Positions 3,394 through 46,415 of a stretch of DNA of 64,000 nucleotides are shown here, piece by piece. Within the stretch, counting starts at the first letter, position 1. Each line of letters begins with the position of its first letter. The translations under genes and the position numbers were made by a program. Source of the stretch: Candidatus Omnitrophota bacterium (GTDB taxonomy: Bacteria; Omnitrophota; Gorgyraeia; DTHP01); NCBI GenBank assembly GCA_023819145.1, contig JAMWCW010000001.1:2400-66399 (forward strand), written 5' to 3'. The notes beneath the pieces are model-generated. The model did not search any database, was not told the DNA's origin, and was given only the letters and a program-made list of their open reading frames with translations.

Positions 3394-3397
3394 TTAT

Positions 3398-3976
3398 ATG
3401 AAAAAGATGTTTTTGTTTCTATGCGTTATTTTTATCTTTGGCTGTGCCAGCGTTGCCGTAAAAGCACCGAAGGAGCCAATCAAAATAGATATTACCATGC
3501 GTCTGGACATATATCAACATGTACAGAAGGATATCAATATGATTGAGGATATGATTTCTGGAGGGAGCAGCAAGACTGATAAAATTAAAAATGAGACGAA
3601 ATCAAGCTTTTTCTTGGGAGTTGCTTTTGCCGAAGAGGAGTTCTTGACCCCTGAGGTAGCGGAGGCGGTTTCCCGAAGGCGTAGCAGGACAGAACAGTTG
3701 AATATCTTGAAGAGAGAAGGCATAATTGGTGAGAATCGTTTAGGGTTGTTGGATATAAGGGAGACAGGAAAAGCCGATAATAATTTAGGCAATTTAATCA
3801 AGGAAGAAAATAATGACCGGATGATTATCTATAAAGCGATTGCCAATAAAAACAATATTTCTATAGAAGAAGTGCAAAAATTGTATAGTGGGCGTCTGCA
3901 AAAAGATTCTCCTTCGGGCACACCCATTGAAATTTTTAATGCCTCAAAAGGTAGTTATGAATGGAGCATTAAGTAA
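3398..3976 (+). CDS. lipoprotein: YnbE-like N-terminal segment fused to a YdbL (DUF1318)-like domain
   Basis: Strong RBS (GGAGGAGGTGA) then ATG at 3398. Lipobox 'FIFGC|ASV'. 'KAPKEPIKIDITMRLDIY' resembles the E. coli YnbE core ('AAPKEPITINMNVKIEHEI', recalled from memory). 'LNILKREGIIGENRLGLL' matches the conserved YdbL/DUF1318 '...GxIGExxxGLL' motif as I recall it. Confidence 0.55.
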   Translation: MKKMFLFLCVIFIFGCASVAVKAPKEPIKIDITMRLDIYQHVQKDINMIEDMISGGSSKTDKIKNETKSSFFLGVAFAEEEFLTPEVAEAVSRRRSRTEQLNILKREGIIGENRLGLLDIRETGKADNNLGNLIKEENNDRMIIYKAIANKNNISIEEVQKLYSGRLQKDSPSGTPIEIFNASKGSYEWSIK

Positions 3977-5177: not shown

Positions 5178-5179
5178 GT

Positions 5180-6763: not shown

Positions 6764-7969
6764 TTATTCTCCTATGGCTAAAACAGTAAAGGAAGCGTTT
6801 TGAAAATAAGTCTGTCCGATATTTATCTCCGAAGTAAGAGGAGCCTGTTCACCGTATGTATAGAATCCGGCAAGCGGGGTATTTTTGCCAAAAACTTCTC
6901 CCACTACTTCTATCTCATTATACTTATATCTCCCTAAGAGTTTTTCACGGGATATGGAACTGAAGGCAATTACTATTTTAGGTTTAGCACCATGGAGGTT
7001 TTTAAGGGAAGTGAGCGCAGCGTGAGAAGCAGCCTCAAGGACTGAATCCTTATTCCCAATCATCAAACGAATTTCCTCTCCCTGAGGAACTTCCGCTCCA
7101 CAGACAAGGGCACCTTCTTCGGTAACCGTGTAGGGATTCCTTAATAAATACTCTTCCTCTCCGGCTATAGCCATACCCAAAGGATAGAGAATAGCTAAGC
7201 TCGCGAGCGGTTCGGTTTTTAATTCCATAACCTCTGTGCCGAAATATTCCTCATATATTTTTACTGCGGGTTGATTATCTATTTCATAGATGATATTAGC
7301 TATTGCTTTTGTTACCTTGTGGGGTTTTCCTAATGGCTTCCAACCATGGCGGGAACCTATGCCAAAACTTAAATCTCCCCCCATCAGTACCCCTACAACG
7401 CTTTCCGAGAGCACCAAACGGTGGCAATATTGATAGGTTTTTCTAAAAAGGAAGTCATCTCCCGAAGACCCGCCGACAATGGGAAAACTTCTTCCCAAGA
7501 TTTCTTGGATTCCTTTTAAAACATCTGCACAATTTCCTGTTAAGCCATCGGGAAAAATCACAAATAGCTTTCTTCTCAGTTCTCCTTGGGCACCGCTTTC
7601 AAGAAATTTACGATTGGCGCTTAAAGCAGACTTACGCCCAGCATCATGCGAGTTTCGGTTTATTCCTTCTCCCCAACCGAGAGCGAACTGGAGTTCATCA
7701 GATTTTAGCAGCACCACCGTTACCGAATGTCTTGCTACTCCCAAAGAGGTAAACTCTCCCGCCGTGCTTGAACCAACCAGAGGAGTTTCTTCTAAAATTG
7801 ATTTTATTCCCTCTATAGTTTTTTCCTGCTCATGCACTGCAGAGATAAAGGCAAAAGCCAAATGAGGATAATCTTCTTTTAAGTCTCTTAAAGCAATTTT
7901 TGCTGCTTCTTTACCTGCAGAAAAACCTGCGGGATTTTTACTTTGTCCTATGCCTACTTTTAAAGCCAT
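6764..7969 (-). CDS. FIST-domain sensory protein (FIST_N/FIST_C)
   Basis: N-terminus 'MALKVGIGQSKNPAGFSAGKEAAKIALRDL...AFAFISAVHE' and overall ~400-aa size and composition fit the FIST N/C architecture. Translationally coupled to the kinase: its stop abuts the start at 6763/6764. Confidence 0.55.
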   Translation of the reverse strand: MALKVGIGQSKNPAGFSAGKEAAKIALRDLKEDYPHLAFAFISAVHEQEKTIEGIKSILEETPLVGSSTAGEFTSLGVARHSVTVVLLKSDELQFALGWGEGINRNSHDAGRKSALSANRKFLESGAQGELRRKLFVIFPDGLTGNCADVLKGIQEILGRSFPIVGGSSGDDFLFRKTYQYCHRLVLSESVVGVLMGGDLSFGIGSRHGWKPLGKPHKVTKAIANIIYEIDNQPAVKIYEEYFGTEVMELKTEPLASLAILYPLGMAIAGEEEYLLRNPYTVTEEGALVCGAEVPQGEEIRLMIGNKDSVLEAASHAALTSLKNLHGAKPKIVIAFSSISREKLLGRYKYNEIEVVGEVFGKNTPLAGFYTYGEQAPLTSEINIGQTYFQNASFTVLAIGE

Positions 7970-8179: not shown

Positions 8180-10633
8180 ATGTCAAAAATTGAGGGAGGA
8201 AACAAAATGAATGAGGTATTGGTAAAAGGAAAGAGGAAGGCTAAGTCAATGAAGGAAGAGGAGATGAGTTTAAAGACAGATTACGGATATTTTACAAATG
8301 ATGGTAAAGAATATGTAATTATTAACCCCCAGACTCCTATGCCTTGGATTAATGTGATTTCCAATGGAGATTACGGTTTTGTTCTTTCCCAGACGGGCTC
8401 AGGTTTCTCTTGGTACAAAAATGCAAATTTAAGCAGAATCAACCGCTGGGACCAGGACTTAATTACCGATACCTGGGGTAAATATATTTATATTCGTGAT
8501 GAAAAAACAAAAAAGTTTTGGTCGGTGTCTTGGAAACCTACATGTCCCTCCTTTAAAAATTATAGAGTAACCCATGGGATTGGCTATACGAAGATTTATT
8601 CTTTATACGAAAACATTGAACAAGAACTTCTGCTTTTTGTTCCGCTCGAAGAACCTTTGGAGATTTGGTGTCTTAAATTGAAAAATCTTTCCCGCCAGGC
8701 ACGCAAGTTGAATATTTTTTCTTATTTAGAGCTTCTTCTGGGAAATGCTATGGACCCCCACCGTGAATTTCAGAAGACATTTATTGAAACCGATTTTGAT
8801 AATAAAACAAAAATATTCTGGGGAAGAAAAAGAAAGATTCCTGTCCCTGACCATATCTCTACTGGACTTTCCGAATACCCCATTTCTTGCTTCCACAGTG
8901 TGAATATTGAACCCATTGCCTATGAAGGAGAAAAGCGTAATTTTATTGGGATGTATAGAAATCCTGCTTATCCGCTTGCCTTAGAAAGAAAGAAACTTAC
9001 CAATACAACGGGGAGATGGTTTGATTCCGTCGCCAGTTTACAGGTAGAGCTTAAACTTGCTTCTCAGGAAGAAAAGACTGTTGTCTTTATTTTAGGCTCT
9101 TGCGAAGATGAGAATTATGTTAAAGAATTGGTCAAAAAATACAGGAATGTAGAAAAAGTAGAAATGGCTTTTCAGAAAACAAAAGATTTTTGGGAGGGTT
9201 TACTTTCGGGAATAAAGGTAGAAACTCCTGACCCTGCCTTTAACTTTATGACCAATTACTGGTTAAAGTATCAGGCAATTTCCGGAAGGCTTTGGGCAAG
9301 AACCGCCTATTACCAGTCTTCAGGTGGCTTTGGTTTTCGTGACCAGTTACAGGATTCCTTAGCTTGTCTTCCTTTAGCACCCGAGCTTACCAAGAAACAG
9401 ATTATGCTCCATGCCGAGCATCAGTTTACGGATGGCACAGTTTATCATTGGTGGCATAACCTTTTGGAACGCGGTGCCCATACCAATATGTCCGATAATC
9501 TCTTATGGTTAGTCTATATTACTCTTCATTACCTGAATGAGACAGCGGATTTCTCTATCTTAGATGAAAAGGTGAAATACGTTGATGGAGAATCTGAGCC
9601 AATATATAATCATTGTATTAAAGCAGTGGATAAAGTTCTTTCTCGTTTTTCTCCACGCGGACTTCCTTTGATTGGAGCGGGAGATTGGAACGATGGACTT
9701 TCCAGTGTGGGTTTAGAGTGGAAAGGCGAAAGCATCTGGTTAGGACATTTTCTCTATGGGATATTGCAGCAATTCGCTCCCATTTGCGAAAAAAGAAACG
9801 ATTTTGAAAGAGCGGGTAATTATCGGAAACGCGCTGAGGAATTAAGGGAAAATATCAACAAATACGCTTGGGATGGTGCTTGGTATATAAGAGCAACCAA
9901 AGACAATGGAGAAGTTTTAGGTTCTTCATCCTCGAAAGAAGGAAAGATTTTCCTCAATGCTCAAACCTGGGCAGTGATTCATGGAACCGCTACGCCGGAA
10001 AGGGCCAAAGAATGTATGGACTCGGTAGAGAAACATCTTTTGCGTGAATACGGACCTTTACTGTTTTATCCAGGATACACTCAACCCGATAAAGAAATCG
10101 GTTATCTTTCTCGTTATGGTGAGGGCTTAAGGGAAAATGGGGGAGTCTATACCCATGCAGCCACCTGGACGATTATTGCGGAAGTGATTTTGAAGCGACC
10201 AGAGAAAGCTTATGAGGTTTATTCCAAGATTTGCCCCGCAAAAAGAGGGTTAAAACCAGAGATTTATATGGCAGAACCTTATGTTACACCGGGTAATATT
10301 GATGGCCCGCAATCTGCCTATTTTGGAAGAGGGGGCTGGACTTGGTATAGCGGTTCGGGTGCTTGGTTATTCAAGGTGTCCTGTGAGTGGATTTTAGGTA
10401 TCCGCCCCACATTAGAAGGTTTATTAATTGACCCCTGCATTCCCAAAGATTGGGCAGGTTTTAAGGTAGTCAAGAGATTCCGTGGGGCAACTTACGAGAT
10501 AGAGATAGAAAATCCCCAAAAGGTAAGTTTCGGAGTAAAAGAAATACTTCTTGATGAACGAAGGTTGGAACACTCCCTTATTCCTGCGCTTTCTGATGGC
10601 AAAACCCATCAGGTGAGAGTGGTTTTAGGATAG
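8180..10633 (+). CDS. GH94-family glycoside phosphorylase (cellobiose / beta-glucan phosphorylase-like)
   Basis: RBS AGGAGG. No signal peptide. N-terminus 'KEYVIINPQTPMPWINVISNGDYGFVLSQTGSGFSWYKNANLSRINRW' closely resembles the conserved N-terminus of cellobiose phosphorylases ('EYVIT.P.TP.PWINY...GGGYSFY.DA.L.RITR', recalled from memory). ~817 aa is the typical GH94 size. 'GDWNDGL' region is consistent with the (alpha/alpha)6 catalytic domain. Confidence 0.65.
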   Translation: MSKIEGGNKMNEVLVKGKRKAKSMKEEEMSLKTDYGYFTNDGKEYVIINPQTPMPWINVISNGDYGFVLSQTGSGFSWYKNANLSRINRWDQDLITDTWGKYIYIRDEKTKKFWSVSWKPTCPSFKNYRVTHGIGYTKIYSLYENIEQELLLFVPLEEPLEIWCLKLKNLSRQARKLNIFSYLELLLGNAMDPHREFQKTFIETDFDNKTKIFWGRKRKIPVPDHISTGLSEYPISCFHSVNIEPIAYEGEKRNFIGMYRNPAYPLALERKKLTNTTGRWFDSVASLQVELKLASQEEKTVVFILGSCEDENYVKELVKKYRNVEKVEMAFQKTKDFWEGLLSGIKVETPDPAFNFMTNYWLKYQAISGRLWARTAYYQSSGGFGFRDQLQDSLACLPLAPELTKKQIMLHAEHQFTDGTVYHWWHNLLERGAHTNMSDNLLWLVYITLHYLNETADFSILDEKVKYVDGESEPIYNHCIKAVDKVLSRFSPRGLPLIGAGDWNDGLSSVGLEWKGESIWLGHFLYGILQQFAPICEKRNDFERAGNYRKRAEELRENINKYAWDGAWYIRATKDNGEVLGSSSSKEGKIFLNAQTWAVIHGTATPERAKECMDSVEKHLLREYGPLLFYPGYTQPDKEIGYLSRYGEGLRENGGVYTHAATWTIIAEVILKRPEKAYEVYSKICPAKRGLKPEIYMAEPYVTPGNIDGPQSAYFGRGGWTWYSGSGAWLFKVSCEWILGIRPTLEGLLIDPCIPKDWAGFKVVKRFRGATYEIEIENPQKVSFGVKEILLDERRLEHSLIPALSDGKTHQVRVVLG

Positions 10634-10758: not shown

Positions 10759-11337
10759 ATGAGTAAAGTTTTAGGAGGTTTGTTTTTAGCAGTGCTGCTG
10801 TTGGTGACCTCTTCTGCTTCTGCCCAAGAGAAGCTGGTGATTGCCGATTTTGACAGCGGAGTAAAACCCAACAACATCGGTGGCGACTTTGGGGCTTGGG
10901 ATAAAGACCCTGCGGATTTTACCCAGATGTGTGTGGAGAGTTTTAATGTTACGGAAAGATATGGCGAATCTGGTTTTTGCATGGCCATTGATTATGATGT
11001 TGACTCTCCTAATCCTGCCTACAATGGTTTCTGGATGAAATTAAACGGCGCAGATTTTTCCAAGTATAAGAAACTATTGCTTAAGGTAAAAGGAGATGTC
11101 ACCAAAGGTTACACCAAAGTAGTTAAAATAGAATTGAAGAATAATAAAGGAGAAGTAGGGAAATACTATATTACGGAAGTAGCCGATAATTGGAAAACTT
11201 TAGAAATACCCTTCTTAAAATTCGCTGGAATTACCGACTTCTCTAATATGACTGAATTTGTTATTGTTTTTGAAGATTGGCGTTCGACTAAAAAAGAGGG
11301 AAGAATCTATATTGATGATTTGATGGTAAGCGAATAA
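10759..11337 (+). CDS. small secreted protein consisting of one beta-sandwich CBM/CIA30-like module
   Basis: RBS AAAGGAGGTGA. Signal peptide 'LFLAVLLLVTSSASA'. Motifs 'DFDSGVKPNNIGGDFGAWDKDP', 'NPAYNGFWMKLNG', 'KGEVGKYYITEV', 'EFVIVFED...KEGRIYIDDL' are shared with the 13424 paralog and with module copies in other proteins of the locus. Confidence 0.5.
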   Translation: MSKVLGGLFLAVLLLVTSSASAQEKLVIADFDSGVKPNNIGGDFGAWDKDPADFTQMCVESFNVTERYGESGFCMAIDYDVDSPNPAYNGFWMKLNGADFSKYKKLLLKVKGDVTKGYTKVVKIELKNNKGEVGKYYITEVADNWKTLEIPFLKFAGITDFSNMTEFVIVFEDWRSTKKEGRIYIDDLMVSE

Positions 11338-11395: not shown

Positions 11396-13324
11396 ATGAA
11401 AAAAGTTTTTATATTTTTTATAATTTTTTTATTATCAGTAGATTATGCTTTCCCCCAGGCAAAGAAATTGTCCCTTGTCCCCGAGAAACTTTTTACCACT
11501 AAATATATCGATGATTTTAATGATGGAGCTCTACCTAATCTTTTGGGAGGGGGGATGAAGGTTGAAGTAGAATCTCCTTCTGAACTTTCTTTTTCCCACG
11601 ATAGAGCACAAGCCTTGGAGAGTAAAGGATACAGTCTTAAATTAAAGTATCGTCTTTATCCTCAGAAAAAAGCAAACCTGATTATTGATTTAAATGAGAT
11701 TGATATCAGCCAGGCATATGGAATTTCTTTTTGGATAAAGTATTTAAAAAGGCCAAAACTGGAAATTTTCTTGGAGGATGGCAAGGGTAATCGGACAGGC
11801 GCGGCTTTAGAGAAATATCTTATTCCCCAAGAGAACTGGCAGAAGATTTCGCTAATGCGGGGAGATTTTCCTGATATTGATTTCAACTGTTTGAAAAACC
11901 TTACACTTACCATCTACGCTTCTGAGGTGGAGACGGGAGAATTTTTTCTGGATGAATTTTTATTTTTTGGTCCTTCCTATCTATTTTTTGAATCTATAAA
12001 GGATAATCTCTATGGCTTTCCTGTAAAAAAGAATTTAGACTCTAAATATTTACTAAATAAACCCGATGAATTTTTATTAAAAACCATTGCCCACGATACC
12101 TGGCTTTATTTTAAAAACTCGGTAGATAGAAAGACGCATTTACCAGTTGACTGGATTGATTTGGATGAAACTAAGGAATACCGCATTGGAGACTATACTT
12201 CGCCGACAAATATTGGGCTATATTTTCTTTGTTTAGTAGGTGCCTATGATTTAGGTTTAATTACTAAAGAAGAAGCAGTAGAGCGTATTGGGAATACCCT
12301 TGAGACTTTAAAAAAACTTTCCCGCTGGAAAGGTCTATATTACAATTGGTATTCCACGACGAACTTGCAGATTACCCGCAGATATATTTCGTCAGTAGAT
12401 AATGGTTGGTTAGCTGCCGGACTTATTGTTGTCAGACAGACATTCCCCGAACTATATATTCCCTGCAGTGCGCTTTTAAAAGAGATGGATTTCTCTATCC
12501 TTTATGACCCAGTAGAGGGAAAGTTATACTTAGGCTACGAGTTAAACCGTGAACCACCCGTGCCCACTCCCTATCATTATGGTCAAATTGCTACGGAGCC
12601 ACGGGTTACCTCTTTGGTGGCTATTGGGAAAGGTGATGTCCCTCCTGACCACTGGTTTAGAATCTTTCGGACTTTACCTATTTCTTGGAATTGGCAGAGG
12701 CAGAAACCACAAGGAAGATATCGGGAGTATTTAGAAATAGATGTTTTTGAGGGCTATTATGAATATAAAGGGTTTAAAATTGTTCCTTCTTGGGGTGGAA
12801 GCTTGTTTGAATTCCTGATGCCTTTGTTGGTTCTGAAAGAGAAAGAGCTTGCTCCTAGAGGTCTGGGATTAAATAATTTAAACGCCATAAAAGCACACAT
12901 CGATTATGCCTTAAATGAGCAAAAGTATCCTGTCTGGGGACTTTCTCCTTGCGCTACTCCCGAGGGAAGATATGGAGGGTATCATGAATACGGAGTAAAA
13001 GATTTGGGAGCTAAAGGATATTCCGATGAGGGTGTAATTACTCCCCATGCATCAATATTAGCCATTGATTATCTTCCTGAGGAGGTGGTGAAGAATATTC
13101 GCCAGTTGCTTAAAAATTTTGATTTATACGGTGAGTATGGAATGTATGATTCTGTGGATATTCATACCCAGAAAGTTGCTTCACGTTATCTTTGTCTTGA
13201 CCAGGGAATGATTTTTGTTTCTTTGGCAAATTACCTGACAAAAGGGAAAATTCGTGAGCGCTTTCACCAAGACCCGATAATTAACAGCGTGGAGTATTTG
13301 TTAGAAATAGAAGAATTTTTCTAA
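11396..13324 (+). CDS. secreted protein: N-terminal CBM-like module + (alpha/alpha)6 glycoside-hydrolase-like domain (glucoamylase/GH144-like, tentative)
   Basis: Signal peptide. N-terminal module ('...NWQKISLMRGDF...TGEFFLDEFLFFG') resembles the CBM-like modules elsewhere in the locus. The remainder ('GDYTSPTNIGLYFLCLVGAYDLG', 'WKGLYYNWYSTTN', 'SSVDNGWLAAGLIVV') has the feel of glucoamylase-like (alpha/alpha)6 barrels. Paralogs at 14479-15916 and in the 36259 ORF. Confidence 0.4.
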   Translation: MKKVFIFFIIFLLSVDYAFPQAKKLSLVPEKLFTTKYIDDFNDGALPNLLGGGMKVEVESPSELSFSHDRAQALESKGYSLKLKYRLYPQKKANLIIDLNEIDISQAYGISFWIKYLKRPKLEIFLEDGKGNRTGAALEKYLIPQENWQKISLMRGDFPDIDFNCLKNLTLTIYASEVETGEFFLDEFLFFGPSYLFFESIKDNLYGFPVKKNLDSKYLLNKPDEFLLKTIAHDTWLYFKNSVDRKTHLPVDWIDLDETKEYRIGDYTSPTNIGLYFLCLVGAYDLGLITKEEAVERIGNTLETLKKLSRWKGLYYNWYSTTNLQITRRYISSVDNGWLAAGLIVVRQTFPELYIPCSALLKEMDFSILYDPVEGKLYLGYELNREPPVPTPYHYGQIATEPRVTSLVAIGKGDVPPDHWFRIFRTLPISWNWQRQKPQGRYREYLEIDVFEGYYEYKGFKIVPSWGGSLFEFLMPLLVLKEKELAPRGLGLNNLNAIKAHIDYALNEQKYPVWGLSPCATPEGRYGGYHEYGVKDLGAKGYSDEGVITPHASILAIDYLPEEVVKNIRQLLKNFDLYGEYGMYDSVDIHTQKVASRYLCLDQGMIFVSLANYLTKGKIRERFHQDPIINSVEYLLEIEEFF

Positions 13325-13423: not shown

Positions 13424-14155
13424 ATGTTTAAAAGGTTTTTTTGGTCTTTGTTGGTTATTTTTCTCCTTCTGGGCATAAGTCTCTCCTTATATAGTTGCGC
13501 TCCCAAGAAGGAAGCAAGTAAACCCGAGGAGAAAAAAGAGGAGGCAAAAGGGGTAATTACTGAATCTGCTAAAGTAGAGGAGCCGGTACAGGAGATTGAG
13601 GTAACCGGTGAACTTGCTAAGCCCAAGCTTAAACTCACCCGCGAAGGTGCCTTAATCGCTGCTGACTTTGACACCTGCAAAAAACCTAATAATCTGGGAG
13701 GAGACTTTGGCGCCTGGAACAAAGACCCTAATGATTTTTCTCAAGGATGTTTTGACAGTTTTGTTTCTACTATTAAACGTGGAGACGATGGTTGTTCGAT
13801 GCAAATAATGTATGATGTGGATTCTGTGAATCCTGCCTACAATGGATTCTGGATGAGATTGGAAGGTGTTGACCTTTCTGCCTACAAGGCAATTTCTTTC
13901 TGGTTAAAGGGCGATGAGATGCGTGGATTTACAAAGGTATTTAAGGTAGAGTTGAAAAACACCAAGGGGCATTTAGGAAAATATTATGTAACCGAAGTGA
14001 CTAAAGACTGGAAAGAGATTGTTATCCCTCTGGATAAATTTGCCGGGTTAGAAGACAGGACTTCCATGCATGAATTTGTGATTGTTTTTGAGGACAGGGT
14101 CGCCACTAAAAAAGAGGGAGCAATCTATATTGACGATATTACATTCTTAAAATAG
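13424..14155 (+). CDS. secreted CBM/CIA30-like module protein (paralog of 10759 ORF) with Lys/Glu-rich N-terminal linker
   Basis: RBS AAAAGGAGGTGA. 'ADFDTCKKPNNLGGDFGAWNKDPNDFSQGC', 'NPAYNGFWMRLEG', 'KGHLGKYYVTEV', 'EFVIVFED...KEGAIYIDDI' align motif-for-motif with the 10759 ORF. Confidence 0.5.
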   Translation: MFKRFFWSLLVIFLLLGISLSLYSCAPKKEASKPEEKKEEAKGVITESAKVEEPVQEIEVTGELAKPKLKLTREGALIAADFDTCKKPNNLGGDFGAWNKDPNDFSQGCFDSFVSTIKRGDDGCSMQIMYDVDSVNPAYNGFWMRLEGVDLSAYKAISFWLKGDEMRGFTKVFKVELKNTKGHLGKYYVTEVTKDWKEIVIPLDKFAGLEDRTSMHEFVIVFEDRVATKKEGAIYIDDITFLK

Positions 14156-14211
14156 GAAAATAAGGCAAGCATTGCTTAAAATTCTGCCTTAAATTAAATT
14201 TCTGGTCCACC

Positions 14212-14240
14212 TTGACGATTCAGATTTTTCATGCTATACT
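14212..14240 (+). promoter_or_regulatory. extended -10 promoter (TTGACG, 17 nt, TGcTATACT)
   Basis: ccaccTTGACGattcagatttttcaTGcTATACT. 'cttgacgatt' also occurs in the promoter-like site at 20388. Confidence 0.4.
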
Positions 14241-14281
14241 TTTTGTAGATAAGGCACAATGCTGCGGGCGGTAAATAGGAA

Positions 14282-14312
14282 GGCGGAGTTAAAATTTTAG
14301 CTCCGCCTTTTT
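14282..14312 (+). terminator. rho-independent terminator (GGCGGAG...CTCCGCC + TTTTT)
   Basis: 7-bp GC-rich stem, 12-nt loop, then a U-run. Lies ~40 nt downstream of the 14212 promoter's predicted start site. Confidence 0.5.
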
Positions 14313-14478
14313 ATGTTTCTCTATTTGTATTTGTGGTTTTATACCGATTTCTTTCCTTCAAGAGATGGTTGTAAATTCGTGGCAGAGGGTTTAATTCTTG
14401 AAGTGCCTCTTGACACTGTCCTATTTATAAGCTACATTTTTAAAGAGAGTTTTTTATTTATAAAAGAGAGGGTTTAAA

Positions 14479-15916
14479 ATGTCATTAAAGCAAAAATTTA
14501 ATTATGTGTTTCTCTTTGTCTCGATATTGTTTTTTACTTTTTTTTCTACAAATTCAATAAGCGCATTTTTTTATTCCCAGAGTCTACCTCTTTTTAATCC
14601 CGATTTAAACACACCCCTTTTACAATCTTCCGAACAGCGGTCACAATTAAACATCCAGACCATTCAGCGCGAGCAGAGCAATTATTTTTTTATATAACAT
14701 TGGTATAGACCCTGATACTAACCTTCCGCATAACTATGTTTTTGTCAAAAGTGATGGTGAATTGGAAATAGGATTCTACAATACCCCCACGGATATTGGG
14801 TACTACCTAGCATGTCTGGTGGGAATAGCAAAGGGAGATATAAGAAATGATACCGTCAGTCAAACAGATGCCATCAACAGACTAATTCATGCCTTGGAGG
14901 TTCTTAAATCCGCTCCCAAAAAAGATGGTTTACTTTATTGGTATGATATTTTTTATCCTGAGATAAAAATCTCTCCTACAAATAGTTATGTCTCAGCAAT
15001 AGATAATGCATTTTATTCTGCAGCATTGGGTTTGATTATAGGGGCTTTTATTGACGACCAAAGCCAGTCGGCGCAGAGACTTGTAAATTTGGCTTTTGAA
15101 CTACTTGCTGAACAGAAAGAAGGTTGGTCTCAACTTTATGACCCAGAGAGAAAACTTTTGCTTGGAGGTTATTCAACAACTGGCGAAGACCCTTTGTACT
15201 ATATAGACCGGGCATACAACGAAGGACGTTTGGCAACGCTGATGGCAATAATTTTGGGAGATGTTCCGCGGGATGCTTGGGAGAATTTAGAAGAATTTTA
15301 TTTAGATTATACCTTATCTCATGGCAAAAAGATGAAAATTCTTGCCCCTTGGGAAAGCGCTTTCCAGGCATGGATGCCGTTGGTCTTTGTGCCCGAGATG
15401 GAATGGTCTCCTCAAGGATTTAAGATTGCCCACCAGAGATATTTAGAAGTACAGATTGACTGGGCTCAACGGGAAAATATGCCTGCTCTTTACGCCGAAT
15501 GTTCCGACCCTTTTACGAAAGATAAATATCAATATATTACAGGTATAGCCATACCTGGTGCCTCCGAGTCTTCTGCGTGGGGTGTGCCCATTCGCTCCGA
15601 TATAGGTTCAGTATATGCAATTGGACTTGCTTATATGGTAGATGAAAAAGTTGGAGAAGATTTTTTTGCCAAATTAATTACGAGGTTTCCTGAAATAAGT
15701 TCTACGCTAGGTTGGTTTGATTCAGTGGGAAGGAAAGGAACAGAACCAGAGGTTTTTTGGGCTACGAGTAGGGCTTATGTGGCCAAGAACCAATTTGTAT
15801 TACTTTCTGCCCTGAATTACCAAAATAACCATCGCTATTTTACACGATTTTTAGAGGTTATAGGAAAATTAGAGTATATAAGAAGTCTTTATAATAACAA
15901 ATCATTTAATTTTTAA
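14479..15916 (+). pseudogene. (alpha/alpha)6 GH-like paralog of 11396 ORF lacking the CBM module; reading frame broken at a T7 homopolymer (ORFs 14479-14697 and ~14651/14762-15916)
   Basis: Signal-peptide ORF 14479-14697 ends '...SNYFFI*' inside 'tattttttta'. The downstream frame reads 'IIFLYNIGIDPDTNLPHNYVFVKSDGELEIGFYNTPTDIGYYLACLVG', homologous to 'WLYFKNSVDRKTHLPVDWIDLDETKEYRIGDYTSPTNIGLYFLCLVG' of the 11396 ORF. Removing one T from the 7-T run fuses the two frames. Confidence 0.5.
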
Positions 15917-15920
15917 TATA

Positions 15921-18503
15921 ATGGATTATTTTTCTATAAAAAAAAGTAGTTTCTGGCTATGTTTAGTCTTCTTACTTTTGTCTCTAAAGGAATTAAGTGC
16001 CTTTATCGGCGTTGGTGATGATAATCTTTATAATATTTCTGCTACAAGTGGTGATTATTACCAAGTTGTAAGTCCTGCAGTTACTTCTTTGTTTCAACGG
16101 GCAAAAACAGAAATCTTTCCCCCTGTATTTAGTGATACTTTAGCTGCTTCCATTGGTATTATAACACAATACAGTTGGAAGAGTTTTCCCGATAATCCCA
16201 ATCAGAGTATTTCCGCAGTATACGACTATGACCCCTATTTTGGTGCGCTTCCTATTTTGCGTATTGATTATGATGTTTCTTCTTACTCCGCAGGAGTATT
16301 TAACGGTTATGCCTTAAAAATTAATACACAGGATTTTTCGCAAGATTTTTATAACCCTATTGTTTTCTATATTCGCGGTGACCCGACATTAGGGTTTACC
16401 CGGAGGTTGAAGATAGAATTTAAAAATAGCCGTGGCAAAGTAGGTTCATATATCATTGAGGGAATTAGTGAAAACTGGCAGAAGATTACTATTGATAAAA
16501 CCCGCGTAGGCAGAGATTTTTCCTTTAGAAGCGATTGGCAGGATATAGAAGAGATAGTTCTGGTATTTGAAGAATGGGGAGTTACTGCGCAGGAGGGAAG
16601 AATATATTTAGCAGGATTTACTTATCCTGAATCCTGGCAGGTTGCTTCTGCAGTAGAAAATATTTACGCAGAATTGAGCCTTCTTTCTCCTGATGAACAA
16701 CAAAGAGTGCTTTCGCAGATTGTTGGTCCGGGGGTAGCCTATAGTTTCAAACCTTTAGATATCGCATCCATAAAAAATTGGATTTTATCTTCTCAAGAGC
16801 ACATTGCTAACGATAGCGGAATTTACTCCTTGAACCAGATGCTTAGAAGTTTAGGTTCTCATACTCCTTCTTTTTCTGATTTAAGAATTGCGGGGGTAGT
16901 CTCTTCCCTGCTGGCAGGGAAAGAGGGAAGAGGAGGGTATAATTCTTCTTTATATGACTTATACCGTTCTGCACAGCTAAACGGTCATCCGATTTATGCA
17001 TTTAGACTTCCTAATTTTTCCGCCTTGGAAGATTTCTTTAACAAAACAGGTAAAATTCCCCTTGTTGCCGAGTTAAAGACTGGAGAGTTTGTCCTCTTAA
17101 ATGGATTTGAGAGAGGCGGGTTTCTCTGGCTAACCAAATTTGTCAAATTTGATTGCTTGGGTGAAGAGGTAACGATGAGCGAACAAGAGTTTACTCAACT
17201 CTGGACAGGTAACATTCTTAGTTTAAGAACTGCCTCTTCCTATCAGCCGTTAGCCAATGAAGAGGTTTTTCAAGGAACAAGTATAACTTCCTATATTGTA
17301 GAAGAAATGTTAGAGAGAGCAAAAGAACTTTCTAATACAGCATATCACCCTCCAGAGATAAAGCCCGTGAGTGTGCTTGACCCTCCTCTTTATGGTCGTC
17401 CTGAGGCAGAGGGTTTAGTTTATCAGGAATATCTGGCTATCGGAGGAGACAAATTTTATGATGATGGTTTGTGGTGGTTTCAAGCAAGACCGCGGGGAAG
17501 TCAAAATAAACTTCCGCTTAAGGTATTCTTGTATGACCCGAAAAGTCTTCGTTATAGTGAAGTTCCTTATGATTTTAATCGCTATAATTATTCTCGTGCT
17601 ACACCGCCAATTACCTATGTTCCTCCAGAAGGGAGGTATATTACTGCTTTAGATATTGGACACATTCTGGTATCAGGAAGTTTTCCCCAGTTTTTTACCA
17701 TTGGTGGGGATGGTTACATGCGTTTTGTGCCTTTGACAGAAGGTAGGGAAATGGGAGCATCTTTCCGAGTAGCTGGGCAAAACATTACCCACTCCCGGCA
17801 GGGAGGGGATCCTTACGATGAGAGTTTTCCTATTGTCAGGGAATTGTATGTGAAAAAGGTTTCGGAGAGCGTTATCAATCTCGTTGCCCTCGTGGATGCT
17901 GAGGGTTTTACCGGGGTTTTAGATATGTATCTCTATCCTCAGGAAATAACCCGTATGGAGGTAGATGCTCGGTTTTTTATGCGACGCGATATGCTAATTT
18001 CCCAGGAGCCAGATACAGGTTTTGCGGGGTTTAGCAGTATGTTTTTCTTGGGCGATGAAAAAAATGACGCAATGATTGGAGAAGTACGTCATACTCCTTG
18101 GAATCCTTATGATGAAGCCCATGATTCCGATTATTTAGTGGTGCATTTTGCGGATGGGAGTAGGGTTGAGCAACTAATTAATAGACCCTTCGAAGCAGGA
18201 AGGGTAGATAGATACGACTTTTCTAAGCCCGATACAGAAATTGTGGGGTTTTCTTTGCAACAGAGAGATAGAAATCCCAGCCACTACCGTGCTTTTCCTA
18301 CCTCTGATTATACTAATCGTCCATCTTTTGATTTAAGAGTGCCTTCCTCCAACATTCCTCTTAGTGTAAAACTCTATGAGATATCTACCGATAACGAGTA
18401 TGTAGATAATATAGTCGCTTTTTTGACCATGGGGAGGAGTTTATACCGTGGAGAAGAAGTACATATAAGATATGAGGTAACCGCTTATGATTACCCGGGA
18501 TAA
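15921..18503 (+). CDS. secreted 860-aa protein: N-terminal CBM/CIA30-like module + possible C39-like (papain-fold) domain
   Basis: Signal peptide 'FWLCLVFLLLSLKELSA'. Module 'FNGYALKINTQDF...KVGSYIIEGISENWQKITI...EEIVLVFEEW...QEGRIYLAGF'. Mid-region 'GEFVLLNGFERGGFLWLTKF...EVTMSEQEFTQLWTGNILSL' resembles the C39-like pattern seen in the ORFs at 60918 and 62579. Confidence 0.4.
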   Translation: MDYFSIKKSSFWLCLVFLLLSLKELSAFIGVGDDNLYNISATSGDYYQVVSPAVTSLFQRAKTEIFPPVFSDTLAASIGIITQYSWKSFPDNPNQSISAVYDYDPYFGALPILRIDYDVSSYSAGVFNGYALKINTQDFSQDFYNPIVFYIRGDPTLGFTRRLKIEFKNSRGKVGSYIIEGISENWQKITIDKTRVGRDFSFRSDWQDIEEIVLVFEEWGVTAQEGRIYLAGFTYPESWQVASAVENIYAELSLLSPDEQQRVLSQIVGPGVAYSFKPLDIASIKNWILSSQEHIANDSGIYSLNQMLRSLGSHTPSFSDLRIAGVVSSLLAGKEGRGGYNSSLYDLYRSAQLNGHPIYAFRLPNFSALEDFFNKTGKIPLVAELKTGEFVLLNGFERGGFLWLTKFVKFDCLGEEVTMSEQEFTQLWTGNILSLRTASSYQPLANEEVFQGTSITSYIVEEMLERAKELSNTAYHPPEIKPVSVLDPPLYGRPEAEGLVYQEYLAIGGDKFYDDGLWWFQARPRGSQNKLPLKVFLYDPKSLRYSEVPYDFNRYNYSRATPPITYVPPEGRYITALDIGHILVSGSFPQFFTIGGDGYMRFVPLTEGREMGASFRVAGQNITHSRQGGDPYDESFPIVRELYVKKVSESVINLVALVDAEGFTGVLDMYLYPQEITRMEVDARFFMRRDMLISQEPDTGFAGFSSMFFLGDEKNDAMIGEVRHTPWNPYDEAHDSDYLVVHFADGSRVEQLINRPFEAGRVDRYDFSKPDTEIVGFSLQQRDRNPSHYRAFPTSDYTNRPSFDLRVPSSNIPLSVKLYEISTDNEYVDNIVAFLTMGRSLYRGEEVHIRYEVTAYDYPG

Positions 18504-20355
18504 ATTGGGGATTGTGGTCTTAATTTTTGGTCTGTTAGTCGGAGAGGGTGAGGCTTTTTATCTGGGAAAGAGTAATGATTATAATCTTCCTCCCGCAGGG
18601 GAGACTACGACTTTTATGCAGGCTAAGAGTGAAATACCGGCGATAACAAATGCCGCCTTACCTGATGTCTTAACCGATACAGATGGTTCCTTGGGGATTG
18701 ATGCTCCTTACTGCAAATATATTTTAATTTATAACCTTACTCCTTTTTACATTGCGTTGGACGATAATTTAAGCCGAATAATTGATAGTGCTTTAACGAA
18801 TTTTGGCATTGAGGACATAAGGTCCTATCTTTCTGCTTATAACTTAGAAATAATAGATTTAAGGTCAGCAATATTCCTCCTTTTAAAATCTCCATACTAC
18901 GTTAACGGTAACCTTGCCCTTCCCGATGAGGCACTTTCTGGTTTAGATTCAAGAACAAGTGCACTCTTTTTGCTTGCCCAAGAATTATCACAAATGATTC
19001 CTTATGCGGATAAAGAATATATTCGTAATTTTAATGTTTCTATTGTTGAACCTGATATAAAATTAGGGCTATCTTATGAGAAGATAAAAAGCGTATTTCT
19101 TCAAGTCCGTCAACAGAAGATATTAGAGGGAAAAGTTGATTATGGTGTGTTTTATAAATATAAAGATGAGATAGAGCGAGCAGTAGTTTCCGCAATTGCC
19201 GGTTTTAATTATTCATCAGATCGTTTTCATCTCCTCTCTGAAGAGATTACGCCTCAGGCAAAAAATGATTTTTATAATCGGATTAGATTCTGGTTAAAGA
19301 CGCAGGAATACATTCCACCTGAGATATTTTCTCTTGTTGAGGATAAGGCAAAGGAATTATTTGATTCTCTTCGAATTAAGAAAGGGCTATTTCCTACAAG
19401 CCCCTGGCAGGGAGAGATTGCCCAGATCTATCGCCTTTTTGGAGGCGAGATTCCCAATCAACTTGAGCGGGGGAAACTCTCTCCTTTTGCTGACTGGGGT
19501 GAGGATATTTATAAGCGTCTCTGGGATATTTCCAGTAATATTGAAAAAGCGTATTCTTCCTTTGGCGTTTTGCTTAAAGGTCCAGATATGACTTTGGAGC
19601 AGTTAAAGACAAAAATAGATTCTCTTGGTCCTGCAATTGTCGGTATAAATAGGGAAGGTAGAAAAGATTTTGTCAAGGTTTTAGAAATTTTCTCGCCGGA
19701 TAAAGGGGAAGGCACAGTAACTTGTCAAGATGCAAATGGAAATGTTTTTGCTCTATTGCTTGGTGAATTTTTTACTTATTGGGACAGGTTTGTTTACATT
19801 CCTGAAGAAAAAAGTATTTCGGCTTCGGTAATTTCTGATTTTGATTTTTCAAATGATAGATTTGGTTTAATTAAAGGTTATGGCCAGTGGACGATTAATG
19901 AATTTGATGATTTAAAGGCAAAAATTGGTATAAACACAAATATTCCTTTATCATCCACTTTACCTTATTTTTATACCCAATATCAGATTGGGGGAGAGAA
20001 AACTTACAAATATGCTGGCTATTTCCAGACTGGCATATGGCTTACTTTTAAAGAAGACATAAAGTCGCTATTATTACGGGGCAGTGCCTTAAGTTTTGAT
20101 GCTTATGTTTCCGCTTATCCAGGAATTAAGTATGTAAGGATAGAACTGAAAGAAGATGAAACAGGAAGAATAATTAGTGAATTCATCATCCCCCGCGAAC
20201 GCCTCAATTTAGCAAACTGGAATACTTTTAAGATTCCCATTCACTATTATCCTGCGGGAACATTAGTGCTTACTTTGGGGGTAATCGGAACCTATCCCGG
20301 TCTTTACGCCCCCCAGAACCATTTTCTGGCGATTGACCGCCTTTATATTGAATAG
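18487..20355 (+). CDS. secreted 622-aa protein with C-terminal CBM/CIA30-like module
   Basis: Start overlaps the previous stop by 17 nt. Signal peptide 'LGIVVLIFGLLVGEGEA'. C-terminal module '...YVRIELKEDETGRIISEFIIP...NWNTFKIPI...LVLTLGV...HFLAIDRLYIE'. Confidence 0.4.
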   Translation: MITRDKLGIVVLIFGLLVGEGEAFYLGKSNDYNLPPAGETTTFMQAKSEIPAITNAALPDVLTDTDGSLGIDAPYCKYILIYNLTPFYIALDDNLSRIIDSALTNFGIEDIRSYLSAYNLEIIDLRSAIFLLLKSPYYVNGNLALPDEALSGLDSRTSALFLLAQELSQMIPYADKEYIRNFNVSIVEPDIKLGLSYEKIKSVFLQVRQQKILEGKVDYGVFYKYKDEIERAVVSAIAGFNYSSDRFHLLSEEITPQAKNDFYNRIRFWLKTQEYIPPEIFSLVEDKAKELFDSLRIKKGLFPTSPWQGEIAQIYRLFGGEIPNQLERGKLSPFADWGEDIYKRLWDISSNIEKAYSSFGVLLKGPDMTLEQLKTKIDSLGPAIVGINREGRKDFVKVLEIFSPDKGEGTVTCQDANGNVFALLLGEFFTYWDRFVYIPEEKSISASVISDFDFSNDRFGLIKGYGQWTINEFDDLKAKIGINTNIPLSSTLPYFYTQYQIGGEKTYKYAGYFQTGIWLTFKEDIKSLLLRGSALSFDAYVSAYPGIKYVRIELKEDETGRIISEFIIPRERLNLANWNTFKIPIHYYPAGTLVLTLGVIGTYPGLYAPQNHFLAIDRLYIE

Positions 20356-20416: not shown

Positions 20417-20557
20417 TTATATGGAAAATAAAAAATTAAAAACATACATAATTATTACCTTATGGCTAAAAGGTAGAAAATGAAATATTTATTTTATATA
20501 AAAATTGCACTAGACAATTCCCTAGCGTATTTAAGGGAGGAAAGGGAGGAAAAACGG

Positions 20558-23500
20558 ATGAAAAATTTGGCAAAGAAAATAATTAGCTTACTACTCGTGG
20601 AATTATTCTTATTTTCTCAGACAAATTTTGGACTTACAACTCTTTTATCACCTCCACCACAACATTTATCAGTAAATAATAATCAAGATAATCAAACTCT
20701 CTTATTACCACCACCTCTTTGTGTTGATCAACAGTCATCTTTTCCCTCTTCTGTGGTGAATATACCTGAGGAGAGGATTAGAGCAGAACTTAAACCTTTG
20801 ATTGAAAAATATCTTGAAGATACCAATAGATCGTTGAATGATTTGAATACTGTAGTTAATAATTTCAGCTATTTAGTAATAGGAGGAGATGATGGTTTAG
20901 ACCTTTTCGCCTTAGAGGAAGTAAAAGCCATATTAGAAGACTCTCTTACACGACAACTAGAAACCCCTTTAGCTCAGTTTTTAGGAAAAGCTGTGCTTGA
21001 TTTAAGCCAGCGCGAAGCGGTAGTTAAACTTTCTGCCTGGAGTGGTTTATATAAAGCGGTAGGAGGATTTTTAAACAGGGACTTAAAATTAGAAGATATA
21101 AAAGACCAAAAAGCGCTCAATGATTTTGCTTTGCTGATAGCAGAAAAAGGCTATGCTTTGGGGGGTATAAAAAGGGTTTTGGGAGATGAGAAGGTAAAAG
21201 CACTTTATAGTTTAGAGGAAATATGCAATCTGCTTTCCCAGTTGCGCGGAGGCGAAACAACCTTGACCTTATTACAGGCGTTAAACGGAAATTTGCCCTC
21301 AATAAACAATTTTACTCCTTTTTCAGCAATCCCAACTGGTTATGAAGGAGGATTCAGTTTATCAGGTAGCCGGCGTAGTCCAGCTGATGCGGAGATTGGA
21401 TTTATTGTGCCTTCCCTGGAGTTAACAAATATTGCCTTCAAGATAAAGATAGATTTAGAAGAAGGTAGTGTTATGCCCGCAGTTAAATTAGAACTGGTTG
21501 ATGCCCAGGGTAATAAAGCGACTACTACCTTAGATGAGGTTACAGATTCGGGTAAGGAATATACAATAAGTAGAGACAGAGATGATTTTAAAATAGATCT
21601 AATAACTACAGCATTTGACTGGAGTAAGATAGAACGAGTTAGCTTATTTTTAGTTACCGGTGGAAGTTCTCAAGGAAAAATAACCTTGAGTGGATTGGAC
21701 GCTTTTTTACTTAGAGAAAAAAAAGAAGAGGTGTTATCAGCCGAGAAAATAAACTTTTTACTTAATTATGGGCTTTTGGGACTTAAGAAATGGGAGTTAC
21801 CTCTGGATATAGAGTTTATCAAATACATCGGTCAACTTTTAGACCATGAAACTACACGGAAAATGGTGGCTAACTGGATGGCGGTTCTACCTTATGCTCC
21901 TCAGCTCATTTGGCGTGATTTGTTTATGGAGGGTTGGAATATTAAGGATGAAGGCATCTTGGGCTATCTTACACTTACTGCCTTAGAGAGGACCGGGAAG
22001 AATAAACTCAGTCCCGCAGAGATATTGGCGACCATTCAATCCCTCGTAAGTGAATTTGAAAAGGGTGATTTTGGGATAAGCGAGGATAGGGTCTTGGTGC
22101 AATTAATGGAGAATGCTTTGGGAAGAAAACTTGATTTTAAATCTTATATGGATGTTATGGCATACCGCTACTGGAGTAAATTAAGAGATTTATTGGGTCA
22201 GGAATTTGTTAGCGAAAAATTAAACAGCCGTAGTTTGGCTAAGAGCTTTCCAAAACTTGGAGATAAAATCGAACTCATAAGAAGATTAGCTTCGGCAATA
22301 GGATTTGATATAAAACTTATGACATCTAATCCTGATACTTGGGATTGGTTCTGGAAAGAAATGGCAATAGGCACCTCCCCAGATATGATTGTGGATATAA
22401 TTTGGGGAGGTTTTGTCTTTAAAGAATTACTCGAAGGAACTCTCTGGATAGGCGAAATAGATGTGCACCATCATATCGAACAGCCTTTCTGGAGATATTT
22501 TGTGGAATATCTTCCTTATTCCGGAGCTTCCAAAGAGCAGGTAGTGAAATTTATTTTAGAAAAATACCGAAATTTACCTTATGATTCGGTAGCAGTGGGT
22601 TTCCCGGAAGTAGCTTCCTACGGAATTACTACTGCAGGTAGAACTTCCTATAATGTAGAGGCGCAAGGTCATCCTTTTACCGCGGATGAAACTAAGAGAA
22701 TGCTTTTGCTTTATCCAGCGATAAACCAGTTACTTTCCCAATTAATCGGTCTTCCTCAGCAAACCGCGCCTGTTTTGAGCATTAGAAGTTTCTTCACCGA
22801 TGAGCTTGATAGGTTGTTAAATTATTTTCTGGAAGCGCGGGATTTCTCCAGCGGAGCGATGGCTGATGCCTTGAGTGGAGTAGATAATTCTACGGCTGCC
22901 GGAGGATTTTTAGTGATGGCGGCAATCATTGCTGCAGAAGTGGGGAAGATATCAAAAGATGAGGCTAATAAGATTATTGGTAATTTCGTAAAATTTATCT
23001 CCGTGACCCAGAAGATGCATGGTTTGCTTTCCCATTATACACGGGGAGGAACAGCAGAGCGTGCAGGAAATTCAGAGTTTTCACTTATTGATACTTATTT
23101 AGCAGTTTCCGCACTCATTGCTTACCGAAATTGGCAAGGTGCAGAACCTGAAGTAGTAAAAGCAATTAACGCTTTTTTAGGTGCGGTTCAACTGGAAGCA
23201 TTGCAGGTACAGGCTAGAACGACAGGACTAATGGCCCGGGGTGGTATTTTGAACTTTGGGGTTACACCCGAAAGGGGTTTTACCGGAGGAATAGTAGATT
23301 TTTATAACGAATATATTCTCTGCTATCTTATTGCCATTGGTCAGACAGATAATCCAAATTTTGCCAGAGATATGGCTTTTTGGTTCTATAAAGGCATCAC
23401 CCGTAAACAGGGAAGCGGTGTTTCGGAAGAAGCATTTACTTATCCCTTTGAGAACTCGCTGTTTCAGTTTCAATATCCTTTGGTTTTTCTGCCGATGATG

Positions 23501-26500
23501 TTTTTAAGCGACATTGGTAGTGAATTCGGCACAACTGACTTGAATCATTTTCGTAACGCCGTAAGCGCCTTTTTAAATACCCATGCCACTGCGGTTAAGG
23601 AAGGAGATAAATTTCGCTCTTTTAACTATCATTCTTGGGCGATGAATGCTTCCGCTGCTTTAGCGAGTTATTATTCAATGGTTATAGGGATGCCTCCCCG
23701 GGATAAAGATGGAGGGAAGAGTTATTATGATGGTACTATTTCTCCCAATGCTACCTTTGGCGGTTTGCCGTTTATGCCTTATCTTTCTTACCAATCTCTG
23801 CGCTATTTGACACTTGCTTTTCCCCAGGCACAGGGTAGATATGGGTTTGTGGATTCGCTAAATCCCGAAAGAAACTGGTTTTCTCCCACCTATTTCAGTT
23901 TAGGTCAGGGGCTTGCTTTAATGGGTATCTGGGATACGCTTAATTACGGAAGATTAGACCGGGAATCTGCCTGGAGCCTAAATTTAAGAGATAAATTCTA
24001 CCTAAAATCTTTGTTTGAATTAGGATTTAGAGAAGATTTAAGCCCGCAGTTTAGTGCAGTATATCAAGAGCTAATAAACGGTGCTTTAGGGATAGAGGAA
24101 GCAGTCAAGGCGATAGTTACGGAAAAGGATTATGCTGTTCTTCGGGAATATCTTACCAGTAAAGGATTAGATACTACTGTTTTGCTTCAGAAATGGCAGG
24201 AAATTGGTCCTTGGGGTTCAAGTTTAGAAAGAGGGGCAGTTATTTCCTTTATTCGGTCTAAAATCGCCGATGGCAGATTGGATAATGCCGAGATTCAGGA
24301 AATTCTGAGGCAAGCAAGGAGTATTGCTGATTACAACCTCATTGCCGAAGTGCTTTTGGGTGACCCTCAAAAAAACAATGGTTTAATGCAATGGGCATAT
24401 GATAAAGAGAGGAATATCTATAAATTAAAATCCGATGAAGGTAGCCCTAACTATCTTCTGTTTCCGCTTCTAATGCAGTTGAGAATAGAACAGACCAAAT
24501 TGACTTTGAGTAATGTTTTCTCCGAACCGGAGATAGTTGGCAAACAAGGCCTTGACCTTGCTCAAGCCTATCTGGATAAGGTAGAAGAAATTGCTCGCGC
24601 TGCCCAATTACCTGATGAACGGGCAATTTTTGCTTTTCAACATTTTACAGAGAAGGCAGAAGGATATTATGCAAAAGCGATTGAGATATTGCAGGGTTTA
24701 ATTGATGGTAAGATTGATTCTTTAGAGGAAGTTAGAGCCCAAGCACTATTATTTACCGCTTACAAGAAAAACTGGCAATATGACCAGCAGAAAGAAGCAT
24801 TTAAACTCTTAGCCCAGGCAGTAGAGGGTAATGTTACTTTTAGGACAGAGGCAATAGATATTATCGCCTCTTATTTTGGTAGAGAAATTCTTGCTGATTA
24901 TTACCAAGCATGGGTCCATCCCCAAAAAGCTCTTACTTCAGAACAGGAGACAAAAGTAAAGGAGGCGATAGCCACTGCTCTGCAATATCCTGACCCCGAT
25001 AATCCTCCTGCTGGGAAAAGTTATGTAGATGTTTTGCTTAATAATAAGATTTCCCTTATCTTTTTTAGGGAAAAATACTTAAGGCAGCCGGTAGTTATCA
25101 ATCCTTATGATGCTACGCAGGCCGGGCAGATAGGCTATTTTGTAACTCAATTGTTCACCAAAGGGGCAAGCGAAGAGCAAATAGTGGGAATGTTGACCGA
25201 GATGCTCAGGTATAAACCTTTGGTAGAATCTGTTTTGGGAAGGGAATTAGACCTTCAGAATAACCGCAATGATTTATATTTGCTTTCCTTAGCGGTTGCA
25301 CTTTCTCTACAAAATCTTCCTGAAGCGCGCATTGCAGAAATTATCGGAGGGACTATAGTTTCTCCAGAGAATTTAGAAACGGCAATTGCAGCGGTTCAGA
25401 ATTTTATGCTTGCCCGAGATTTAAGGGCTTTTGTGGATAAAACCTTACAGCTTTCTCGCTATCTGAGAAATAAAGAAAATGTTCAGATTGCTTTTGATCC
25501 TCTATTAGGAAAGTTTTTGGGACAGGATTTGCCCACAGAAAAATGGACCGATTTTCTTATAGATATCTTGACTGTAGATAATATAGAGGAATATTTGACT
25601 TACAAGGTCATTGGGGAATTAAATAAGATTGAAAAGATAAATATTGAAAAAAACGCTTTTTATGAAAGGAGGACAACCCGCTATCGCTATAAAGATGCCT
25701 ATTTTGGTGACAATACCAATCTGGATTTGGAAAATGAAAGGGTAAGAGAAATACTTGATAAGGCTTTTATTATTAAAGCGGAATTAGAGGCTATCTATCA
25801 AACTATAATAAATGTAGAAGAATCATCTCTTGACCATCTTTTACTTACTTCTTTGGTACGGCTATCTTTAGATTCAAAAGTGAATATAGAGGAGTTATTA
25901 GGCTCATTTACTGCTACATTGAGAAGTAAAGGTATGGTTGAGGAAAAAGCGCAGAAAATCTTTCTTACCTTTATTTTACCCAATATGCCTTTGAGTTTAA
26001 TAAGCAGAGAAGGTTTTGAACAGTATGTAGCAGATGTTGTTCAATTGGCAGGAGAACTGCGTCTTTCTCTTTCAACTGCAAAAGATTTAGCCGTGGTTTC
26101 AAGTATAGTTAATCTTAAATATGCGGGGATAGAGAGTATTCCTCAAGATATAAAAGAATTATCAGTCCACTACCAAGCCCTTTTGCGGAGTCCGAAATTA
26201 GCCGATTTAAGAACTGCCCTTGGCCCTTGGGCAGGAGTAGTTTTGCCCGAGTTAGAGCGGATATTGGGCATAGATTTAACCCTTGCTACTGGAGAACAAA
26301 TTTCCCAAGCAAAGCAGTGGCTTAATGTTTTAACCCTGCCTGAATTTTCTCAAGTAGCTTCTGCGGATATAGATTTTCTTAAGGTCTGGGCGAATATTGC
26401 GAAAGAAGCAAAAATTATTGCCCAACTAAGAAAAGAATTAGAAGGATTTAAAGATTCTGCCATTAGGTTCTTGGAACAATATGTTCTCGGTGAAACCTTC

Positions 26501-40494: not shown

Positions 40495-40529
40495 ATTATG
40501 TGTTTATAATAAGAAAGGAGTGGTTAAAA

Positions 40530-43754: not shown

Positions 43755-43766
43755 AAAGGAGCAATA

Positions 43767-46397: not shown

Positions 46398-46415
46398 AAA
46401 TAATGAGGGATTTTT

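Follow-up and report, generated by a model that had tools for sequence, protein, structure and literature searches.

The window, a 64-kb stretch of an Omnitrophota contig, contains between positions 8180 and 40494 genes for enzymes of the β-1,2-glucan type in a dense cluster, which also holds genes for two CBM11-like small secreted proteins. The cluster opens with a GH94 gene (8180-10633), which is followed by a CBM11-like protein (10759-11337), a PF10091/GH189-like protein of 642 aa (11396-13324), and the second CBM11-like protein (13424-14155). Next come the GH192-like gene that is the subject of this report (14479-15916, forward strand), which is frameshifted in this assembly, and, beginning only 4 nt past its stop codon, a gene for an MdoG/OpgG-like protein of the GH186 type (15921-18503, forward strand; 860 aa). 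A 622-aa protein to which no function is assigned (18487-20355), a 3803-aa protein with one PF10091 domain at residues 940-1150 (20480-31891), and a 1411-aa protein that also carries a PF10091 domain (36259-40494) complete the cluster. PF10091 or SGL-clan domains are also encoded by the genes that begin at 11396, 20480, and 36259, in addition to the GH186-type gene at 15921. The order GH94, CBM11-like, PF10091, CBM11-like, GH192-like, MdoG-like, and a protein of about 625 aa is conserved in the contigs that harbor orthologs of the frameshifted gene, and the core of this order is kept in the Omnitrophota contigs L003, L004, L006, and L011. The cluster is common to this Omnitrophota lineage and to related contigs from other sequencing runs and MAGs, and its content (GH94, GH189-like, GH192-like, GH186-like, and giant PF10091 proteins) bears on the diet or the products of these uncultivated bacteria.

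A divergent group of genes on the reverse strand (4245-7969), encoding a FIST-domain protein, a GAF histidine kinase, and a GGDEF response regulator, adjoins the GH94 gene. A FIST gene lies beside GH94 in contig L003 as well, and the set may represent a dedicated regulator of the glucan locus. In the protein encoded at 15921-18503 the MdoG-like domain is confined to residues ~519-855; part of the N-terminal extension of about 500 aa resembles, by eye, the CBM11-like small proteins (ILRIDYDVSS...FNGYALKIN...IEFKNSRGKVGSYII). Farther downstream, among large unannotated ORFs (40500-48245), an 876-aa protein (43767-46397) contains a CofD-like domain of the 2-phospho-L-lactate transferase family.

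The GH192-like gene is divided between two reading frames. Its 5' fragment (14479-14697, forward strand) comprises 72 codons, which encode a signal-peptide-like segment and the start of the conserved domain (IQTIQREQSNYF), and it ends in a premature TAA; the last codons read AGC AAT TAT TTT TTT ATA TAA. The T run in this sequence is exactly 7 nt long (14685-14691). The 3' part (14651-15916, forward strand) lies in the +1 frame (positions 2 mod 3), which is open from 14651, directly after a TAA at 14648-14650, to the stop codon at 15914-15916. The (α/α)6 GH192-like catalytic domain, including D175 and E248 (numbering of the fused protein), is encoded in this part, whose C-terminal end coincides with the C-terminal position of the orthologs. 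Deletion of a single T produces a continuous protein of 478 aa. The T7 run and the geometry of the two frames are as described in the initial annotation of this DNA, and its proposal that the removal of one T restores a secreted glycoside hydrolase-like protein of about 478 aa is borne out: a single gene was split, and its orthologs align across the break.

Alignment to the orthologs also fixes the position of the lesion. In the window the conserved residues NYF end at 14688 in the upstream frame, and the conserved residues LYN begin at 14690 in the downstream frame, whereas in every ortholog exactly one residue separates the F and the Y. The lesion is thus exactly one surplus nucleotide inside the T run. 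In the ortholog alignment the surplus base is 14689, and the reconstructed intact or ancestral sequence is TAT TTT TTA (T6, encoding Y-F-L). The conserved motif I..IQRENSxYFxYN(I/V/L)GIDPDT runs across the break.

In the public record of this MAG, the NCBI annotation of the 221-kb contig lists only a 384-aa ORF (NC818_00095, protein MCM8783169.1; 14762-15916, forward strand), which begins at TTG 14762, the first start codon in the downstream frame. The fused protein and intact orthologs of 472-487 aa can be aligned over their entire lengths. Residues 59-467 of the fused protein also align, across the break, with the 642-aa protein encoded at 11396-13324 (26% identity, E 8e-28). The initial annotation had named this protein as a paralog, and the homology across the break holds; the protein is, however, only a distant relative that is closest to GH189-type domains. 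Its best match among solved structures is 8WY1, the GH189 domain of a cyclic β-1,2-glucan synthase (E 1e-53), and it belongs to another branch of the same SGL clan. Judged from these alignments, the match of the two gene pieces to one family is not due to chance.

The signals at the 5' end of the gene appear undisturbed. The 5' ORF encodes MSLKQKFNYVFLFVSILFFTFFSTNSISAFF..., which has Lys in its N-terminus, a hydrophobic core at residues 7-24 (Kyte-Doolittle about 2.1-2.3), and an SISA|F motif; by these features the N-terminus has the shape typical of a Sec signal peptide. A Shine-Dalgarno-like element, AGAGAGGG (14465-14472, forward strand), lies 6 nt upstream of ATG 14479, and a promoter-like site, TTGACA-17-TACATT (14410-14438, forward strand), matches the consensus only. 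The 323-nt spacer 5' of the broken gene also contains a terminator-like hairpin (14275-14314, forward strand; 18-pair stem, 4-nt loop, and a T tail), the sole one in a scan of 14000-16100, in which 1.7 would be expected by chance. The hairpin closes the upstream CBM11-like gene, which suggests that the broken gene starts a new transcription unit; this unit probably continues into the MdoG-like gene, and the premature stop codon is possibly polar on the downstream genes. The hairpin, the promoter-like site, and the Shine-Dalgarno-like element together suggest that the native start and the expression signals are still in place.

A homolog search across 5.8 billion proteins retrieved seven relatives: the window's own 384-aa fragment, five full-length orthologs (472-487 aa, 50-69% identical), and one fragment at a contig end. 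Genomes in GTDB added two more intact orthologs, one from a Tibetan hot-spring MAG (71% identical, 469-478 aa with alternative start codons) and one of 475 aa from MAG CA_2019_NHSR_50. The seven intact orthologs, which are 50-71% identical to the fused protein and 469-487 aa long, stem from further Omnitrophota contigs and MAGs in which the gene order is the same. At the site of the break the ortholog codons are TAT TTC CGC, TAC TTT ACC, TAT TTT CTC, TAT TTT AGG, TAC ACA ATT, and TTT TTT CAA. The T run at this site is at most six nucleotides long in all seven intact orthologs (T2-T6 are found), which indicates that the T7 tract is specific to this lineage. The initial annotation had allowed for a fixed pseudogene with orthologs that are split as well, but all seven orthologs are intact and encoded in a single frame.

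Apart from the surplus T, the broken gene shows no decay. A pseudogene in decay would be expected to have several lesions or relaxed conservation; here there is a single lesion, and no further stop codons or frame shifts were found in the gene. As a measure of conservation we used a leave-one-out count of invariant positions and left dN/dS aside, synonymous sites being saturated at about 70% protein identity. Of 150 alignment columns with no variation among the other five full-length orthologs, the broken gene retains 145 (96.7%), the top score of any member. The absence of a second lesion and the retention of the conserved residues suggest that, if the gene is a pseudogene, it is a very young one.

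No Pfam model matches the fused protein, and the family assignment is therefore drawn from sequence and fold searches against the PDB. The top sequence match is 8XUJ, with an E value of 4e-38 for the single sequence and 1.8e-54 for a profile of the orthologs; the next-best solved structure is the GH189 structure 8WY1 (E 1e-11), and GH144, GH162, and GH194 were not matched in the sequence search of solved structures. The structure 8XUJ is that of EeSGL1, a β-1,2-glucanase from Endozoicomonas elysicola and the structural representative of "Group 1", now GH192 (Nakajima et al., Protein Sci 2025, PMC12102758). Mutagenesis of EeSGL1 identified E221, the general acid, and D149, the candidate general base, as required for activity (PMC12102758). 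In a HMMER alignment their counterparts in the fused protein are E248 and D175, both of which are invariant in all orthologs. An AlphaFold2 model calculated from a shallow alignment reached a pLDDT of 63 and a pTM of 0.74, a moderate quality. The fold search with this model returned 8XUJ as best match (TM 0.59-0.66), followed by the (α/α)6 barrels of the SGL-clan families GH189, GH144, and GH162; the predicted fold is thus the (α/α)6 barrel of GH192. By sequence and fold the protein belongs to GH192 (SGL clan, or clan GH-S), and we predict that the gene encodes a secreted β-1,2-glucanase. The label "surface-protein gene" in the initial annotation is not justified: the gene appears to encode a secreted glycoside hydrolase, and nothing indicates a surface antigen.

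We consider a recent and real change from T6 to T7, which created a null allele in the dominant population, to be the best explanation, with a probability of about one half. In this lineage only, the T6 tract (TAT TTT TTA) would have gained one T, and the likely cause would be ordinary slipped-strand mispairing at replication, a non-programmed, one-off event. Translation from the native ATG at 14479 would stop at 14697, after 72 codons, and the catalytic domain would be left without the signal peptide and the conserved N-terminal segment. The null allele could be a very young pseudogene or a variant within the population that dominates the assembly. The 72-aa product consists of the putative signal peptide and about 45 additional residues. 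Besides the signal peptide, the 384-aa ORF is missing 11 residues that do not vary in the family, 10 of them in the aligned domain at residues 62-93 (I62, S67, Y72, G75, D77, T80, L82, P83, F88, and G93) in addition to P37. Given these missing parts, a functional secreted enzyme translated from TTG 14762 is unlikely, and the function of the gene would have been lost. The locus holds several other genes of the β-1,2-glucanase type, which may make this loss tolerable, and the other SGL-clan and GH186-type genes could compensate for it.

The interpretation as a null allele presumes a real extra T in the DNA, not one confined to the assembly. It is quite possible that this is not the case, and that the true sequence is T6 with an intact gene, the surplus T having resulted from a homopolymer miscall, from low local coverage, or from a chimeric strain consensus. 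The location of the lesion in a homopolymer would fit an artefact, as would the integrity of all orthologs and of the whole locus. The conservation of the remainder of the gene (145 of 150 invariant positions, and both catalytic residues) fits an artefact and a very recent mutation equally. The genome is known from a single MAG, and none of our searches recovered a second copy of the genome or strain. In exact look-ups, the fused protein and the 72-aa ORF were absent and the neighboring proteins were found from this MAG only; a single-protein scan of the GTDB species representatives and scans of JGI metagenomes with conserved peptides and with the exact DNA pattern, allowing T6-T8, returned no second copy. 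MAGs with neighboring accession prefixes include contigs with a k-mer coverage of only ~1-2. Furthermore, singleton frameshifts validated by homology are expected to be mostly sequencing errors, according to a survey of older sequencing technologies (PMC3711429).

Several observations argue against an artefact. The window contains 38 homopolymer runs of at least 7 nt, 33 of which are located in ORFs, and 8-nt runs also occur in frame. The reading frame is broken at only one of these 33 coding runs, and the 83 runs of 6 nt all leave it intact. ORFs of 3803, 1742, and 1411 aa (up to 11.4 kb) are uninterrupted. This suggests that the homopolymer error rate of the assembly is low. MAGs with neighboring WGS prefixes (JAMWCG, JAMWCM) have contigs with SPAdes NODE_ names, which points to a short-read assembly for the window's own MAG as well; its platform would then be Illumina, for which consensus indels in a T7 run are rare. 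The length of the contig, 221 kb, also suggests good coverage. The same neighboring MAGs carry the isolate labels JZ-2 and QZM4_1...Tibet, which we take to denote hot-spring sites in Tengchong and Tibet. Since these relatives, which apparently belong to the same submission, are from hot springs, the MAG that contains the window is probably from a hot spring, too.

A second region of the window had been suspected of containing a frameshift, at 3371/3393, where two ORFs (2272-3393 and 3371-3976) overlap by 23 nt. This overlap is an artefact of start-codon choice and ORF calling: the second ORF, which encodes a DUF1318 protein, really begins downstream of GGAGGAGG, with an ATG at about 3400.

The initial annotation raised phase variation alongside a pseudogene and a sequencing error, with no preference among the three. 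Under phase variation the T tract would be a reversible switch that toggles secretion of the glucanase through slippage between T6 and T7, with the MAG caught in the OFF state; by polarity, such a switch might also toggle the downstream GH186-type gene and the gene for the 622-aa protein. The homopolymer with the break does lie close to the 5' end of the gene, which encodes an exported protein and heads a probable operon, and an undecayed gene is what one would expect with a regular return to ON. The gene also has four runs of at least 7 nt in 1.4 kb, whereas the window average predicts 0.85 (Poisson P about 0.01). Three of these four runs, however, fall within the first 215 nt of the gene, and two of those three encode the Phe-rich signal peptide, so that the mild excess is attributable to Phe-rich signal-peptide codons. 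The T runs in this gene and its neighbors are mostly Phe codons of signal peptides, and the codon UUU is very common here (39 per 1000; AUA is used at 25.6 per 1000). T runs of 7-8 nt likewise occur at 11424, 13436, 14538, 14566, 34469, and 62604, in each case within the first ~100 nt of a gene for a secreted protein, where they encode Phe-rich signal peptides; genes for exported proteins here have many slippage-prone sites in frame.

Comparative data lend phase variation no support. The long T tract is missing at the site from all seven orthologs, which have different codons there, and without a conserved variable tract an evolved switch is unsupported. The tract is not unusually long for the genome, as a phase-variable tract would be, and a T7 run is short for an A/T switch, seven nucleotides being at the low end for slippage. 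The look-ups and the scans of GTDB representatives and JGI metagenomes described above did not reveal a copy with a different tract length either. We therefore regard an evolved switch as improbable. If it were real, no contingency locus would have been described in Omnitrophota before it, and it would control polysaccharide foraging rather than immune evasion.

Even less probable, and in our view very unlikely, is that the T7 allele still gives rise to the full-length enzyme, either by +1 ribosomal frameshifting on UUU_U or through an RNA polymerase that drops one U. A +1 slip of tRNA-Phe from UUU (14686-14688) to UUU (14687-14689) would allow perfect re-pairing and would yield exactly the conserved NYFLYN (the full-length product would contain ...EQSNYFLYNIGIDPDTNLPH..., with the junction NYFLYNIG); A/T runs are known sites of RNA polymerase slippage (PMC1088944), and the downstream frame is undecayed. 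However, each ortholog has one continuous reading frame, no GGAGG-like motif that could act as an upstream Shine-Dalgarno-like stimulator is present in 14640-14684, and the next codons, UUU and AUA, are too common here for either to be a slow A-site codon. The lineage-specific T7 run also is below the length of about 9 nt at which slippage becomes prevalent in many bacteria (PMC1088944). Rescue of the frame would require a deletion of 1 nt or an insertion of 2 nt, whereas transcriptional slippage on homopolymers mainly adds nucleotides, and homopolymers are seldom associated with deletions (PMC5574713). We rejected a programmed +1 frameshift of the prfB type, which is neither conserved nor accompanied by stimulators, and programmed transcriptional slippage, for which the run is too short (7 nt versus about 8-9), lineage-specific, and in need of a slip in the unfavored direction. 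At best, a low-level and accidental leaky rescue of the null allele is plausible, with no programmed mechanism behind it.

The characterized enzyme most similar to the predicted product is EeSGL1. The homology extends over nearly the whole domain, and the catalytic residues E221 and D149 are matched by the invariant E248 and D175. We also count as a likeness that the neighbors of the gene described here are other enzymes of the β-1,2-glucan type (GH94, GH186-type, and GH189-type). The Omnitrophota protein is, however, only about 25% identical to EeSGL1 and escapes detection by Pfam. EeSGL1 is from a marine gammaproteobacterium, whereas the present gene is from Omnitrophota, its copy is frameshifted, and its activity is a prediction. 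For the public record this means that the 384-aa "hypothetical protein" NC818_00095 is better described as a frameshifted 478-aa β-1,2-glucanase of the GH192 type.

The frameshift itself can be compared to three known situations. In genes rescued by transcriptional slippage (in endosymbionts, in IS elements, and in dnaX of T. thermophilus; PMC1088944), an A/T run at the frame change is likewise followed by an undecayed downstream ORF; in those cases, however, the runs are about 8-9 nt or longer and conserved, and the present gene would need the deletion of a nucleotide. With the homopolymer contingency loci of bacterial pathogens, as treated in the reviews on slipped-strand mispairing to which PMC3711429 refers, the present gene shares a frameshift in a mononucleotide run that lies near the 5' end of an exported-protein gene, and a slippage by ±1 that is reversible in principle. 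It differs in that its tract is short (7 A/T), unconserved, and not unusual for the genome. The closest counterpart is the class of singleton frameshifts in the GeneTack survey, in which one genome is broken while its homologs are intact and homology is found on both sides of the break; we see no material difference between these and the present gene. In that survey, such frameshifts are explained by a sequencing error or a recent indel (PMC3711429). Unless the switching of tract length is real, the frameshift teaches nothing new, and the value of its description is mostly one of annotation hygiene. The lesion is an ordinary singleton homopolymer frameshift, and what is new is only the family to which the gene is assigned and the context of the locus in which it resides.
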